Source: a virus
Taxonomy: Duplodnaviria; Heunggongvirae; Uroviricota; Caudoviricetes
Length of the DNA: 45,230 nucleotides
Virus record (IMG/VR): IMGVR_UViG_2718218139_000011
Strand: one strand, 5' to 3'
The notes beneath the pieces were generated by a model. That model had not been told where the DNA came from, ran no database searches, and saw only the letters and a program-made list of their open reading frames with translations. This document shows, in pieces, positions 30,967 to 37,632 of this stretch (position 1 is its first letter; each line of letters starts with the position of its first letter). The translations under genes and the position numbers were made by a program.

Positions 30967-31042
30967 TGGTGGCCCTTGCTGGATTTGAACCAGCGACCTG
31001 GCGATTATGAGTCGCTCGCTCTCACCACTGAGCTAAAGGGCC
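30967..31042 (-). tRNA. tRNA-Ile2-like, anticodon CAU (ileZ-like)
   Basis: GGCCCTTTAGCTCAGTGGT...CTCATAATCGC...GGTTCAAATCC...CCA; resembles E. coli ileX-type tRNA. Confidence 0.8.
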
Positions 31043-32906: not shown

Positions 32907-33262
32907 TCACTTTCAATTTTGTAAATCTTCACACCCAACCGACCACCAGAAACGAGCTGACCGCGCACAATATTAATTTCGTCAAACTGCTCGTCGTCTA
33001 TGAGCAATCCGGCATGCGTCAGCGCATCCAGCGGTGCTTTCAGGATATTGTCCAGGTCACGACGGCGCTTATCCGGTGGCTCTGCAATAATCTTTATCGC
33101 CAGCCTTCCGGACAGGTTTAATTTCAGCCGCTGCTGGCGAACAATAAGCGCCACTGCCCGGCGATAACGCTCCCCGGCTTTTGATACAAAATATGTGCTG
33201 CCACGACGTCGCCAGTAAGTGTTCACCGTCGGCGGGTAAGGTAAAACCAAATCTATGAGCAT
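32903..33262 (-). CDS. rusA: RusA-family Holliday junction resolvase
   Basis: 119 aa with YPPTVNTYWRRRG, RRRDLDNILKAPLDALT and GGRLGVKI motifs. Confidence 0.85.
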   Translation of the reverse strand: MLIDLVLPYPPTVNTYWRRRGSTYFVSKAGERYRRAVALIVRQQRLKLNLSGRLAIKIIAEPPDKRRRDLDNILKAPLDALTHAGLLIDDEQFDEINIVRGQLVSGGRLGVKIYKIESE

Positions 33263-33274
33263 CAGTCACCTCTT

Positions 33275-34324
33275 TTACCCAAGCACGCCAGTTGCAAAGG
33301 CGTGATCAAGAAAACGAAAAATTAAATCAACCTGAGAACCATGCTTTTCTTCGAACGCCAGCGGATCCGCATGAAGCTCGTTGTGATGCTCCCGACACAG
33401 CGGTAGCGTGAAAATATCGTGAGATTTTGTCCCCATTCCGCCCTGACCATGACCAATCAGGTGATGGGGATCGTCGGCTGGCTTACCACAACACGCACAC
33501 GGCTGTGTCTTCACCCAGCGTGTGTATTTCTCGTTAACCCAGCGGCGACGTTTAGGTCGTTTCATGAAAGATTCCGGAGACTCAGGATCAACGGCAATGC
33601 TGACCACCGTCTTTTCCTGTGGTGGGTTCTGTTGCTGGTGGGCGTGAGGCAGCGGCGCAAGATTTTTTGTGCGCTGTTTCAGTATGCTGGTGGCGGTCTG
33701 CTCTCCCGGTACGATGTCGCTTTCACGGTACATTGAGCGGATTTTTTCCGCACGCAACCCCAGCGAACGACGTAATACCGCTTCCGGTAGCGCGTCCGCC
33801 ACCTGATTGCGGACCGCCCACCAGGATAATTCAGCCAGAGATAATTCACGCTCCTGCGTACCGCTTATTGCGCGACCGATGACGTCAATCATCCATGCTG
33901 ACAGGTTTTGATGAGCAAGTTGCTCGAGTGATTCGGATGTCTGGTCACGCAGCTGGTTGTCGCAGTGCCAACACAACACCATTGCGCCGGTACCATAACG
34001 GTGAATGACGGTTTCAGAGTGATGGTAATCGCCATTAGGCCACTGGCAGGATGTAACATGACGTAATAGCCAGTCAGACAATGCGCCAACGCCGCCAGCA
34101 GCGCGAATCACCCGCTCATCGCTGAAAAATGGCAGCAGAGATTTGTCTTCCGCCAGCGGCTGGCGAACGGCAGGAACGACTCCGGATGGCAGACCTCGCA
34201 TGCTTTTTGGCTCCGGCTCCACCAGCACACGCCCCTGCATAAACAAAGGCATCGCATCAGGACCGGGCCTGAAAAGTACAATCCCCAGACGGTGAGCAAT
34301 TTCAGGAGTCACTAATACCCGCAC
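33275..34324 (-). CDS. DUF968-family protein (YdfU-like) with C-terminal Cys/His-rich HNH-like region
   Basis: 349 aa; C-terminal CACCGKPADDPHHLIGHGQGGMGTKSHDIFTLPLCREHHNELH. Confidence 0.7.
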   Translation of the reverse strand: MRVLVTPEIAHRLGIVLFRPGPDAMPLFMQGRVLVEPEPKSMRGLPSGVVPAVRQPLAEDKSLLPFFSDERVIRAAGGVGALSDWLLRHVTSCQWPNGDYHHSETVIHRYGTGAMVLCWHCDNQLRDQTSESLEQLAHQNLSAWMIDVIGRAISGTQERELSLAELSWWAVRNQVADALPEAVLRRSLGLRAEKIRSMYRESDIVPGEQTATSILKQRTKNLAPLPHAHQQQNPPQEKTVVSIAVDPESPESFMKRPKRRRWVNEKYTRWVKTQPCACCGKPADDPHHLIGHGQGGMGTKSHDIFTLPLCREHHNELHADPLAFEEKHGSQVDLIFRFLDHAFATGVLG

Positions 34325-34325
34325 G

Positions 34326-34604
34326 TTACCTCCAGATGCGTTGCTGGAATGTGCGGGACGGACGCGGTGGGCGTTCGGAATAAGGGAGCCTGACGGAAAT
34401 TATCCAGTGTCGGAAGTCAAGACTGAGATCCTTCCTGACCTCGCGTCCGCGCCTGCGATAACACTGAATCAGCCATTCGGCCTGTTCTTCAGTGCACGGA
34501 TCATGCTGATACCAGTCAGTTTTAAAGACGTGTGAACGCCGCCCGTACCGGATGGCAGGGTCGGCTGAGTTATCAGAATTGTGATGTTTGGTATTGTGCG
34601 CCAT
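34326..34604 (-). CDS. Hypothetical small protein (occupies the position of rem in Qin)
   Basis: Internal ATG (MAHNTKHHNSD...) of the 34326..34658 track ORF; start uncertain. Confidence 0.4.
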   Translation of the reverse strand: MAHNTKHHNSDNSADPAIRYGRRSHVFKTDWYQHDPCTEEQAEWLIQCYRRRGREVRKDLSLDFRHWIISVRLPYSERPPRPSRTFQQRIWR

Positions 34605-34739
34605 CGGTTTTCTCTGCTGGCGCAGCAGGTGCCAGTTGTTCAGGCTGACGTGCGGCAATATTGTCTCTGATTTCTGTTGTCGTCAACAGGCAACGTGCTA
34701 TCATCGAATGGTGTTCTATCCTACTCCGTGAGGTTTACC

Positions 34740-34997
34740 ATGCGTACAACCCAACAATTCAGCATTACATTAACTAACGAAATGGCTGACATGGTGCGCG
34801 CCCGTGTGGCTTCCGGTGCCTATGCTTCAGAAAGCGAGGTCATTCGTGAAGGGCTTCGCGCACTGAATGAGCGCGATAAAGCAATCGAAGCGTGGTTAAC
34901 GCATTCAGCCGCCCCCTCTCTTGATTCTATCCGCGAAAATCCAAACAACGGACGCTCCATTTCACAGGTTCGCGCCGCGATTCGATCCGGGAAGTAA
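34740..34997 (+). CDS. parD: ParD-family antitoxin (ribbon-helix-helix)
   Basis: Start MRTTQQFSITLTNEMADMVRARVASGAYASESEVIREGLRAL with GTGAGG RBS 6 nt upstream; plus strand. Confidence 0.8.
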   Translation: MRTTQQFSITLTNEMADMVRARVASGAYASESEVIREGLRALNERDKAIEAWLTHSAAPSLDSIRENPNNGRSISQVRAAIRSGK

Positions 34998-35002
34998 TCT
35001 GC

Positions 35003-35302
35003 ATGACATATGAAGTCATCATTACTCCTGAGGCCGAACAACAAATAATCAACCTGCACAAATATATAACGGAGAAAGCAGGGAACGTCATTGCTGACAA
35101 TTATGCCAATGCGCTTCTTGATTATCTTGATGGGTTTTCTACATTCCCGCATCGGGGCAATAAACGCGATGATATTCGCCAGGGGATGCGGGTAACTCAT
35201 TTCCGCCACAGAACGATTATTGCTTTTGCCGTTGATGGCAGAAAAGTCTTTATTGTCGGTATCTATCATGGTGGGCAAAGTTATGAAACCGATTTCTTAT
35301 AA
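35003..35302 (+). CDS. parE: ParE/RelE-superfamily toxin
   Basis: 99 aa starting 5 nt after the parD stop; size and organisation typical of ParE. Confidence 0.75.
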   Translation: MTYEVIITPEAEQQIINLHKYITEKAGNVIADNYANALLDYLDGFSTFPHRGNKRDDIRQGMRVTHFRHRTIIAFAVDGRKVFIVGIYHGGQSYETDFL

Positions 35303-35385
35303 ACTTTTACCCACATCATTCCGGTGTTAGAATAAACCGTCCGCCCCCTCTCTTACTGGCGGATTCGTAGGCTATATAAATCAAA

Positions 35386-35419
35386 GATCCCGGCTCATAT
35401 TTGTGTCGGGATCTTTTTT
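35386..35419 (+). terminator. Intrinsic terminator downstream of parDE
   Basis: Hairpin GATCCCG-(14 nt)-CGGGATC followed by T6. Confidence 0.55.
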
Positions 35420-35506
35420 CGGCGATTTATCCCCAGCGGCAAATCGAATACACCACCAGCGCCACCGCCATCGCAATTCCTACCGTTGTGAATGCTTCAG
35501 GCCAGG

Positions 35507-36007
35507 TCATCGTAAAATATCCTCCACGCTTATCAGTCCGTTTCGCTTCAGGTAGTCCATCGCTTTATCCGGTAATTTGCAGTCCGGTTTCGCTTTCCTC
35601 AGTTGCCAGGCCAACTGCTTTACCAGCATAGTTAGTCCTCTTGCCGAACCTGATGGAATCGCCAACTCTTTGCTGGCAAGCTTCAGCATGGCATCTCCGT
35701 ATCTCGCCATACCTTTCTCAAGCGCAGCTTTAACCAGTCCTTCAGGCACTACCGGCACAGGTGGAGCGGCAAATAATGGTTTGGGTGATATCTCCGCACG
35801 TTTTGCATATGCCTCAACTGTGTCAGGATTAAACAGGATTATGTTTTCACCGCATTCCCATGCTATCGGTTCTGCTTCCAGCGATGCCAGCGCAATTTTG
35901 AATAACTCGCACTCTACCCGTGCCATTTCTGAACTTGGGTGACATTTCGCAATCGCTATTCTTAATTTAGCCTCTTCGATTAATTGCTCTTTGGTTAATT
36001 CAGTCAT
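35507..36007 (-). CDS. Hypothetical phage protein (Ea22-like flavour)
   Basis: 166-aa ORF; family unverified. Confidence 0.5.
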   Translation of the reverse strand: MTELTKEQLIEEAKLRIAIAKCHPSSEMARVECELFKIALASLEAEPIAWECGENIILFNPDTVEAYAKRAEISPKPLFAAPPVPVVPEGLVKAALEKGMARYGDAMLKLASKELAIPSGSARGLTMLVKQLAWQLRKAKPDCKLPDKAMDYLKRNGLISVEDILR

Positions 36008-36137
36008 TTTTCATTACCGCCCTTTCGGGCGGCCTCCTGATGATTTGAGGGTGCAGAAATCCCTCCGGTTAAGGATTTAATAAAAATCACTTCTGATTTA
36101 AATTTTCAGTGTTTTGTTGCCAGGTGATTTATCGCCT

Positions 36138-36449
36138 TTACGCTTCAGCCTTATTTCGCAACCAGACACAAACCGGGCCATCTTCGGTGTCATGTATTGA
36201 ACCAATAAACCATCCATCGCCCTCTGGTCGTTCCGGTTCCCAGGTGGAAATATCAGGACCATCTGCGTCCAGATTAAAATCATCTTCATCCATAGTTCTG
36301 ATGGTCCATTGAAGATTATTTTCCTCCATCCATGCGTTAAACTCTTCCGTTGAAATATGTTCTCTACCATCACAGAATTTTTCATATTCAGGATGCGTCC
36401 AGCAGCCATATTCATCACGTACTACTGGTATTTCTTTAATTTCATTCAT
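36138..36449 (-). CDS. Hypothetical acidic protein (possibly DUF551-like)
   Basis: 103-aa ORF; family unverified. Confidence 0.5.
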   Translation of the reverse strand: MNEIKEIPVVRDEYGCWTHPEYEKFCDGREHISTEEFNAWMEENNLQWTIRTMDEDDFNLDADGPDISTWEPERPEGDGWFIGSIHDTEDGPVCVWLRNKAEA

Positions 36450-36696
36450 TTCTGTTCTCCCACGTTTTCAGACTTTCACCACAGAACGGACAAAATGAAA
36501 CCCGAACTGGTAATTTAGAAAATTCACCGGAACGCAACATCACCAAATCAGGGCCGCGAGTTAAACTCTCATTCCAGATTTTGTATATCAGCAGACCTTT
36601 TCGCGTCGTGTATTCAGCATCATGCTCAAGGGATTTTGCCAGAGCCGTACACGGTTCTATCTTGTTGCCATTAATTTGGCATTTTGACTCACTCAC
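36442..36696 (-). CDS. Hypothetical 84-aa protein with C-terminal CxxC
   Basis: GTG start overlapping the upstream stop (GTGA) with AAGGAGA RBS. Confidence 0.5.
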   Translation of the reverse strand: MSESKCQINGNKIEPCTALAKSLEHDAEYTTRKGLLIYKIWNESLTRGPDLVMLRSGEFSKLPVRVSFCPFCGESLKTWENRNE

Positions 36697-37340
36697 TGGT
36701 TGTCTCCTTTGCGAATCTGTTCCACCCATTCTTCAAGGGATTTCTCCGCATATTCACCGGACAGACCATCAATCGGGTGCGGTTCATTAGCCAACTCTTC
36801 TTTCGCTGACAGAATCATGCGCGTAACGTCGAAAACCTCACGTAAAGACTTATTGATAAATCCGTGATTGAACGCAGCAGCAAGACGGCTGGCGGTATAG
36901 TTAATCCCCTCGTTGCGTGCTTTCGCACGTACTTCAGCCAGGAAAGCATCGGTGGCTGGGGTTTGCGGCATCCTTCCGTCTATTGCACAGATATACGCAT
37001 CAGATAGTTCATCCTGCTCGCCATCAAACACGTAGCAACTCTGTGCGATAAATTTATTCAGCCCCGCATTCTCCGCCGCAAGTGCAGCAAGATTAGTCTC
37101 CAGCTCTGCAATGCGTTTGCTTTGGGCTTCCCGTTCATCAAGCACTGCCAGCACGGTAGCCGGATTGGCTGCCGCTATGAATCGCTTATTGGCGCGATTA
37201 TCTGGTCCTGAGCATGATGCTATGTAGTAATTTGCGTTCAGTCCGGCATCGGCAATTACCCCATAATCATCAGAACACCATTCGCCAGAGGTTGCATTTT
37301 CTGCCGCCATTCGCAGTGCCTGGTAATTAATGTTGCTCAC
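36693..37340 (-). CDS. Hypothetical phage protein with coiled-coil segment (Ea22-like)
   Basis: GTG start preceded by AGGAGG; 216 aa. Confidence 0.55.
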   Translation of the reverse strand: MSNINYQALRMAAENATSGEWCSDDYGVIADAGLNANYYIASCSGPDNRANKRFIAAANPATVLAVLDEREAQSKRIAELETNLAALAAENAGLNKFIAQSCYVFDGEQDELSDAYICAIDGRMPQTPATDAFLAEVRAKARNEGINYTASRLAAAFNHGFINKSLREVFDVTRMILSAKEELANEPHPIDGLSGEYAEKSLEEWVEQIRKGDNQ

Positions 37341-37632
37341 TGGTTGCCTCCTGAAAAATAACTGCATGCCCCAGCTTCTCCGCCAGTGCCAGTTCTGCCT
37401 TAGCACCTGCTGACCGCTGCCAGCCTTTCAGCATGTAAATCGCATCCACACAACGAATCATTGCCATGCAAATATCCATGTAGTGCGGCTGTGTCAGCCC
37501 GTCCGAAAGTACTGCCGGGTTTAAGACGGTATACCCTTCCCGTTTCAGTTCCTCTTCCGCCTCGTGGAACGCCTCACGGTTGAAATTTTTATACCCGGTC
37601 ATCGGACCAGCGATATAAACCCTCACCCTCAC
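37327..37632 (-). CDS. DUF4406-type protein (nucleoside 2-deoxyribosyltransferase-like fold)
   Basis: 101 aa MRVRVYIAGPMTGYKNFNREAFHEAEEEL; GTG start overlapping upstream stop with AGGAGG RBS. Confidence 0.65.
   Translation of the reverse strand: MRVRVYIAGPMTGYKNFNREAFHEAEEELKREGYTVLNPAVLSDGLTQPHYMDICMAMIRCVDAIYMLKGWQRSAGAKAELALAEKLGHAVIFQEATSEQH

Follow-up and report, generated by a model that had tools for sequence, protein, structure and literature searches.

A ParD/ParE-family toxin-antitoxin operon, probably an accessory module, lying antisense in the nin region of a lambda-like Escherichia coli prophage

What is a pair of small genes that runs against the direction of a phage operon, and what does it do for the prophage that carries it? 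The question is raised by positions 34740-35302 of the tailed-phage record IMGVR_UViG_2718218139_000011, a stretch of 45,230 nucleotides (hereafter the window), for which a preliminary description made from the sequence alone had proposed a ParDE pair. We consider it quite probable that this locus is a self-contained type II toxin-antitoxin (TA) operon of the ParD/ParE family, an accessory 'moron' of a lambda-like prophage that likely serves selfish retention. The pair itself is an ordinary TA module and already annotated as such in RefSeq (ParD family antitoxin and RelE/ParE family toxin), in PHROGs and in the record of phage ArgO145; searching the literature brought up neither functional work on this module nor any paper in which its RefSeq accessions are cited.

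The interval given by the preliminary description is exact. Two open reading frames (ORFs) occupy it on the plus strand: parD (34740-34997, ATG start) encodes an antitoxin of 85 amino acids with a ribbon-helix-helix (RHH) domain, and parE (35003-35302, ATG start) encodes a ParE-clade toxin of 99 amino acids belonging to the RelE/ParE superfamily. The genes are separated by 5 nt on the same strand with the antitoxin first, and the neighbouring ORFs with family support all lie on the minus strand, as expected from the antisense orientation relative to the early-right operon that had been described. No third co-oriented gene stands beside parDE, both flanking genes being phage genes on the other strand. 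The locus thus has the layout of a type II TA operon, with small, adjacent, co-oriented and closely spaced genes in antitoxin-first order whose pairing is kept across taxa.

The assignment to the ParD and ParE families, which the preliminary description had put forward, is borne out by family profiles, known structures and predicted folds alike. ParD scores above the cutoffs of both Pfam ParD_antitoxin PF03693 (32.1 bits, cutoff 21, E = 1.6e-7) and NCBIfam TIGR02606 (53.8 bits, cutoff 46.2, E = 1.5e-14), and ParE above that of Pfam ParE_toxin PF05016 (41.1 bits, cutoff 23, E = 2.7e-10); a search of NCBIfam returned no equivalog match for ParE. Among phage families, ParD belongs to PHROG 6494 'antitoxin' (1.7e-56) and ParE to PHROG 5232 'toxin' (2.9e-43), both in the moron category. 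The sequence matches of ParD in the PDB are ParD proteins (3kxe_C, the Caulobacter ParD1; 7ycv; 7b22; 6x0a_a). Its AlphaFold2 model (mean predicted local distance difference test score, pLDDT, 90) contains helices at residues 13-24, 31-66 and 74-84, with the N-terminal strand region 1-12 appearing as coil in the monomer, and the predicted architecture is that of ParD, with an RHH domain at the N-terminus and a helical region for toxin binding at the C-terminus. The best fold matches are ParD structures, on which the RHH domain can be laid with a root-mean-square deviation of 1.1-1.6 A; the small size of the domain accounts for their weak Foldseek E-values.

Since PF05016 and the RefSeq name span the whole RelE/ParE superfamily, the clade of the toxin was checked separately. 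A profile search of the PDB with ParE found ParE toxins only (6x0a at 6.9e-6; 5ceg; 7ycs; 8c24), as did the sequence search, and neither matched any RelE, YoeB, YafQ or HigB sequence. The AlphaFold2 model of ParE (pLDDT 83) comprises a short strand, helices 9-26 and 28-46, and strands 61-67, 71-78 and 81-89, a predicted N-terminal two-helix hairpin on a three-stranded antiparallel sheet. In Foldseek its top 21 matches are all of ParE type, with template modelling (TM) scores of 0.67-0.73, whereas the RelE, YoeB, YafQ and HigB ribonucleases reach only 0.4-0.57, so that the modelled fold lies nearer to ParE than to the RNases.

Purifying selection acts on both genes. The ratio of nonsynonymous to synonymous substitution rates (dN/dS) is 0.06 for parD and 0.11 for parE in comparison with a Salmonella copy, and 0.08 for parD in comparison with a Yersinia copy. 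At greater distance the pairing persists: of 17 loci drawn from Beta-, Gamma-, Alpha- and Deltaproteobacteria, among them Paraburkholderia, Polynucleobacter, Desulfovibrio, Pantoea and Dyella, 16 have parD directly upstream of a parE relative. Together with the profile matches, these results show that the two ORFs do not stand side by side by chance. The toxin subfamily counts 2406 clusters at 50% identity (E <= 1e-3) and the ParD family 2657 clusters at 90% identity; 224 plasmids, the majority of them belonging to Rhizobium, Sinorhizobium, Paraburkholderia and Pseudomonas, carry relatives at 45-52% identity as ordinary parDE pairs. Closer to the window, the 24 contigs that were read from among 39 index blocks all encode an identical ParE protein, and parE is present in 327 complete E. 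coli genomes at 332 places; as there are only 332 places in 327 genomes, double copies of parDE are uncommon. No E. coli plasmid was found to carry this parE allele at the DNA level, and this ParE occurs in three distinct deposited phage genomes only.

The preliminary description had credited the pair with its own ribosome-binding site and terminator and had seen in them the marks of an autonomous module. Both signals are present, and a promoter-like site can be added to them. The control region, together with the left end of a mobile cassette considered below, occupies 34657-34739 on the plus strand, as judged from a promoter scan and from alignment of the copies. The scan places a -35-like TTGTCG at 34677-34682 and, after a 16-nt spacer, an extended -10 (TGcTATCAT) at 34696-34704; the site is also present in the copies of ArgO145, Salmonella and Yersinia. 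The block formed by TCGTCGTCAACA and the -10/5' untranslated region is nearly invariant across the aligned copies, and the segment from the -35 to the ribosome-binding site is almost unchanged in the window, ArgO145, the Stx2a-phage variant and the Salmonella copy; it is largely retained in the Yersinia copy despite a coding sequence just 71% identical. A palindrome read by eye, CTGTTG-tcgt-CAACAG at 34674-34689, overlaps the -35 and would be a candidate ParD operator, while an automatic repeat search of the promoter region reported nothing, including these 6-bp palindrome arms. For translation, a GAGG at 34730-34733 lies six bases before the ATG of parD. Because parE has only a weak Shine-Dalgarno-like GGGAAG, 8 nt upstream of its ATG, and starts 5 nt after the parD stop, it is likely translationally coupled to parD.

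Downstream of the pair, an intrinsic-terminator-like hairpin (AAAGATCCCGGC...GTCGGGATCTTTTTT, 35383-35421, both strands) was located from its fold energy and conservation. The stem-loop at 35383-35416 has a folding energy of -20.7 kcal/mol (z = -4.84), is followed by a T-run and is seen in the folds of both strands; a simple terminator scan missed it through its loop limit of 8. Since an A-run precedes and a T-run follows, it can terminate in both directions, 81 nt past the parE stop on the plus strand and about 10 nt past the point where a 27-codon ORF of the minus strand ends, and it is conserved in ArgO145, E2865 and a second prophage of the same genome. A weak terminator call of the automatic scan inside parE (35224-35243) was disregarded.

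Two further features of this region deserve mention in their own right. An exact 14-nt direct repeat, CCGCCCCCTCTCTT, is found at 34909-34922 inside parD and again at 35341-35354, where it sits within a hairpin (35339-35365) 3' of parE, in both its loop and its stem; about 0.02 such matches are expected by chance, and the second copy is 1 nt shorter in some prophages. The 27-codon ORF (35427-35510, minus strand) encodes the hydrophobic peptide MTWPEAFTTVGIAMAVALVVYSICRWG, overlaps the stop of the upstream 166-amino-acid gene (35507-36007, minus strand) through an ATGA and stops some 10 nt short of the bidirectional terminator; ArgO145, E2865 and the sister prophage all retain it, and PHROGs contains no match to it.

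The site in which the pair resides appears to be a recurrent one. On its left lie, both on the minus strand, a conserved small ORF of family phrog_1212 (34326-34598) and its neighbour DUF968 (33275-34324), and the region 34326-34654 forms the left shoulder of the slot. The preliminary description had compared the position with that at which Qin carries relBE and hokD. In Qin of strain K-12 the order is ydfT(Q)-ydfU(DUF968)-rem-hokD-relE-relB, YdfU is 83% identical to the DUF968 protein of the window, and DNA homology to Qin continues through the small ORF as far as 34621; the comparison therefore holds for position, DUF968 marking the same slot, and fails for strand, the TA genes of Qin being on the phage-operon strand and parDE antisense to it. 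The small ORF was also considered as a homologue of Qin Rem, and this was rejected as the two do not align. The likeness is nonetheless stronger than had been stated because hokD fills the slot directly after the small ORF in all five E. coli prophages sampled for having the small ORF-DUF968 block without parDE; the window homology of such hokD-type prophages ends at 34650-34654. The junction of the small ORF with hokD was found in 2649 of 5426 complete E. coli genomes and that with parD in 327 of the 5426, a number tallied separately from the 327 genomes with parE.

Because hokD in the sampled prophages, rem-hokD-relE-relB in Qin and parDE share the DUF968 junction, we regard the site beside DUF968-RusA-Q as an interchangeable TA slot, which on sequence comparison is occupied by hokD, by relBE with hokD (Qin) or by parDE. 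Among these, parDE is a minority occupant and the sole inverted one. An interchangeable slot of this kind suggests that addiction or exclusion is selected for there, whatever the chemistry of the toxin. In a Salmonella enterica prophage (sequence s1), the nin-type region that holds parDE also contains the sok RNA of a hok/sok locus (extracted locus L015, 2589-2739); the two are separated by an antirepressor/C4/isrK module, and two TA types can thus coexist and do not strictly replace each other.

The autonomy claimed for the pair is also reflected in its mobility. A core cassette of 644 bp with sharp ends (34657-35300) contains the promoter, parD and parE; homology to the Salmonella prophage is limited to precisely this interval, and the cassette boundary at 34657 is exact in the ArgO145 and Salmonella comparisons and recurs in three other contexts. 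In Salmonella parDE lies in a nin-type region between the replication genes and an antirepressor plus a Q-like gene, in Yersinia similis in an early region between the AntA and ERF genes, and in the Stx2a phage ArgO145 in the early-left arm adjoining the antirepressor, antisense in each case. The cassette thus appears to move between phage contexts, always antisense to its neighbours, and its own promoter- and terminator-like signals, its variable presence and its position between conserved phage genes are those of a putative moron.

A second, divergent promoter-like site is recognizable at the left end of the cassette in every copy. In the ArgO145, Salmonella and Yersinia copies it reads TTGACG-18-TATATT (10/12 in the promoter scan), and in the window, at 34657-34686 on the minus strand, TTGACG, an 18-nt spacer and AATATT (9/12). 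In ArgO145, Stx2a phage LC727840, Salmonella and Yersinia, the Rfam families isrK (RF01394) and C4 (RF01695) lie directly downstream of this site, and the order in those four contexts is isrK, the c4 a1/b1 targets, C4 antisense RNA and the antirepressor gene. The back-to-back arrangement with the parDE control region is seen at 4059-4277 of the extracted ArgO145 locus (L002), 3462-3684 of the Salmonella locus (L015) and 3458-3679 of the Yersinia locus (L026), and the module resembles P1 immI or Gifsy-1 isrK. This module is absent from the window according to the Rfam search of 34000-36200, homology stopping exactly at the divergent -10. We propose that the minus-strand site of the window is an orphaned copy of an isrK-type promoter, now facing small ORF-DUF968-RusA-Q. 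The hairpins found upstream of the cassette elsewhere, with GGTTCGAATCC, were considered as a tRNA fragment or attachment site and set aside: ARAGORN found no tRNA, and Rfam identifies them as isrK and C4.

Besides the intact pair, a parD without a functional partner circulates. This orphan parD, about 86% identical, occurs in 37 complete E. coli genomes and in 51 deposited records of phages, most of them Stx2a phages, where the match is confined to the parD end. In Stx2a phage LC727840 (extracted locus L004, 2584-3562) it follows the same promoter; parE breaks off after five codons and survives as a 7-codon stub, and a lipoprotein-like and a HigA-like ORF come next. All 12 amino-acid differences between the orphan ParD and that of the window fall in residues 49-84, the toxin-binding half, the DNA-binding half being identical, and with a dN/dS of 0.16 the orphan gene is still under purifying selection. 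A 2025 study of phages of enterohaemorrhagic E. coli (EHEC) noted orphan ParD and HigA antitoxins and speculated that they counteract host toxins (PMC12502783). In the Yersinia similis Y228 copy (extracted locus L026, 4001-4284), parE is frameshifted and the adjoining parD intact, which is another route to an orphan antitoxin.

How the operon would work can be proposed from the ParDE systems of RK2, Caulobacter, Vibrio, Mycobacterium and Pseudomonas. A ParD dimer would bind its own promoter through the N-terminal RHH domain, with the palindrome over the -35 as the likeliest site, and repress the operon, while its C-terminal helices would wrap around ParE and neutralise it. Should ParD synthesis stop, freed ParE would poison DNA gyrase and bring about DNA damage, SOS induction and growth arrest. 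As the cassette is insulated on the opposite strand, its expression would be independent of the phage repressor. Its role is likely, by analogy, the selfish retention of the cassette and the prophage, shared with the hok/sok and relBE of the same slot. Retention is the most economical role, given that the slot is shared with hok/sok and relBE and that stabilisation of prophages is known for ParE systems which they carry: the prophage-borne ParESO-CopASO keeps the excised prophage (PMC8706911), and another ParE-type system carried by a prophage, PfiT/PfiA, limits Pf4 phage production (PMC7264888).

Other readings have to be set beside this one. We give almost no credence to the idea that the toxin is a RelE-type ribosome-dependent mRNA endonuclease and not a ParE: a RelE structure (9g12) does stand at rank 22 of the fold search, and PF05016 and the RefSeq name would cover such an enzyme as they cover the whole superfamily, but the PDB searches and the TM scores of the RNases given above speak otherwise, and the partner is a TIGR02606 ParD and not a RelB, YefM or DinJ antitoxin. 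That the pair is an inert relic we regard as highly improbable. Decay does occur in the family, parE being frameshifted in Yersinia similis and deleted in the Stx2a phages, and the host prophage looks defective; here, however, both ORFs are intact, the control region is conserved, and the dN/dS of 0.06-0.11, the ParE protein identical on 24 contigs and the presence of parE in 327 complete genomes all argue for maintenance.

The preliminary description had suggested, beside prophage stabilisation, a part in abortive infection, and the module could have phage exclusion as its main role: an infecting phage would shut off or degrade ParD, and freed ParE would arrest the cell and protect the lysogenic population. 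We think this unlikely, although it is the main rival. The hok/sok system, an occupant of the same slot, has been reported to exclude T4, which counts for this reading. The orphan parD of Stx2a phages and 37 E. coli genomes, selected at a dN/dS of 0.16, lends it indirect support, an orphan antitoxin being the form that a counter-defence would take; the EHEC-phage study suggested that orphan ParD and HigA might counteract host toxins (PMC12502783). On the other hand, neither protein matched a PADLOC defence model at E <= 0.1, no demonstration that ParDE defends against phages turned up in a literature search, and with the 12 differences of the orphan ParD in the toxin-binding half cross-neutralisation is not assured. 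It is improbable to a somewhat greater degree that the ParE-like protein is no gyrase poison and instead regulates phage or replicon biology, as PfiT and PrpT do, with ParD as co-regulator. PfiT (9w3a) and PrpT (7ycs) are among the top fold matches at a TM of about 0.7, equal to classical ParE, and in four contexts the control region stands back-to-back with the promoter of the isrK/C4/antirepressor module, so that ParD binding could affect an immunity-type module there; yet that module is missing from the window, the nearest sequence relatives are classical ParD3/ParE3- and ParD1-type pairs, and the 45-52% identical relatives on many plasmids are ordinary parDE pairs. We would venture only as a long shot that parDE and the orphan parD reflect a conflict between co-resident lambdoid prophages, in which a resident exclusion or abortive module faces a silencer or neutraliser carried by Stx2a phages, and in which ParE damage could induce neighbouring prophages via SOS. 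Subsidiary to that idea, the orphaned promoter (34686-34657) could let ParD control leftward transcription to DUF968-RusA-Q.

The reading of the locus as a TA operon serving retention has its own difficulties, which are gathered here. A second identical parDE lies in the same slot of another lambdoid prophage about 197 kb away in the same genome (PVMG01000001.1, 796856-809155), and would cancel post-segregational killing upon loss of either copy; the occurrence of parE at 332 places in 327 genomes is likewise counted among the points that weaken a simple addiction model. On either side of the prophage stands a direct copy of a 1266-bp insertion sequence (IS) of the IS3 family (1294-2559 and 43492-44757), the two being 100% identical, and no integrase was found within the window, including the interval 40.6-43.5 kb; such a prophage may be truncated or immobilised and unable to excise, leaving little to stabilise. 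The left arm of the palindrome is degenerate in the Yersinia copy, and the palindrome coincides with two overlapping divergent -35 hexamers and may not be the ParD operator. PrpT functions in plasmid replication control. Both it and PfiT, top matches to the ParE fold, have been studied in other contexts, PfiT in the control of Pf4 (PMC7264888).

Comparison with known systems sets the module among prophage-borne and plasmid-borne relatives. The best sequence and fold matches are the ParD1/3/4-ParE1/3/4 pairs, such as Caulobacter crescentus ParD1-ParE1 (3KXE) and Mesorhizobium opportunistum ParD3-ParE3 (5CEG/6X0A), which share with it the antitoxin-first operon, an RHH ParD with C-terminal wrapping helices and a ParE of helical hairpin and beta-sheet; the solved proteins are no more than about 20-36% identical to it, and the E. 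coli pair resides on lambdoid prophages and not on a plasmid or the core chromosome. The relBE-hokD of Qin and the hokD of other prophages are likewise addiction-type TA modules in the same slot, promoter-proximal to small ORF-DUF968-RusA-Q, but they lie on the phage-operon strand and belong to unrelated toxin families, Hok being a membrane peptide with a Sok antisense RNA and RelE an mRNase. The PaaR2-PaaA2-ParE2 system of the O157:H7 prophage CP-933P (5CW7/5CZF) also places a ParE-fold toxin on a lambdoid prophage, but its toxin is 18% identical and it has a small non-RHH PaaA2 and a separate PaaR2 beside the immunity region, whereas the antitoxin of the window is an RHH ParD and a third gene is lacking, so the pair does not belong to that system. 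ParESO-CopASO of Shewanella CP4So and PfiT/PfiA of Pseudomonas Pf4 resemble it as prophage-borne pairs of the ParE superfamily, but they come from other hosts and phage types at 15-17% identity, and their roles are demonstrated where that of the E. coli module is inferred. The founding member, ParDE of RK2/RP4, stabilises its plasmid by post-segregational killing, its ParE poisoning gyrase; this plasmid-borne system supplies the mechanism assumed for the E. coli module. The prophage that carries the second parDE also has an HTH (helix-turn-helix) repressor, PaaA2 and ParE, a PaaR2-PaaA2-ParE2-like set, beside its immunity region.

The wider context is that of a lambdoid prophage read on the minus strand. 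Its early part runs Cro, YdaT, two unassigned genes, DUF977, DUF4406, Ead/Ea22 and small ORFs up to parDE (plus strand), with a cI-like S24 repressor at 39966-40604 on the plus strand; past parDE follow the small ORF, DUF968, RusA, a DUF1133/Q-like gene, an AraC-type HTH protein and three tRNAs, and the distal part comprises TerB, a SASA esterase, lysozyme, terminase and tail protein J. The pair thus lies between Cro, YdaT and the early genes on one side, where Ead/Ea22 and DUF977 also belong to the minus-strand neighbours, and the DUF968-RusA-Q-like block on the other, in agreement with the nin-region placement first given. The interval 33000-37500 is 100% identical to contig PVMG01000001.1 of assembly GCA_003015325.1. 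Each IS3-family element encodes ORFs of 100 and 272 amino acids, and a third copy, partial and inverted (44756-45230), abuts the right-hand one. The GC profile gave no clear foreign-DNA signature, and Rfam detected no RNA of any family in 34000-36200.

Outside the parDE region, a partial ORF at 1-753 (plus strand) by the tail-fibre end contains four EspF proline-rich repeats (PF04806, 5.5e-109) and is a TccP/EspF-like type III effector gene, from which the host is likely an attaching-and-effacing E. coli. A DicF small RNA (sRNA) lies in the early-left arm at 42514-42565 (plus strand, 76.7 bits), as in Qin, and an STnc100 sRNA near the TerB and esterase genes at 29851-30023 (minus strand, 104.7 bits). 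The tRNA genes Arg-tct, Arg-tcg and Met/Ile-cat are found at 30793-31042, downstream of the Q-like region.

Taken alone, the pair adds little, being already labelled as a TA module of one of the best studied families; the added value lies in the picture of slot, cassette and orphan. The coexistence of intact and orphan versions in prophages of E. coli strains that make Shiga toxin (STEC) offers a simple system in which retention may be set against phage-phage conflict. Should ParE prove to poison gyrase, its release within polylysogenic STEC could, speculatively, feed the SOS response and the induction of Shiga-toxin phages.

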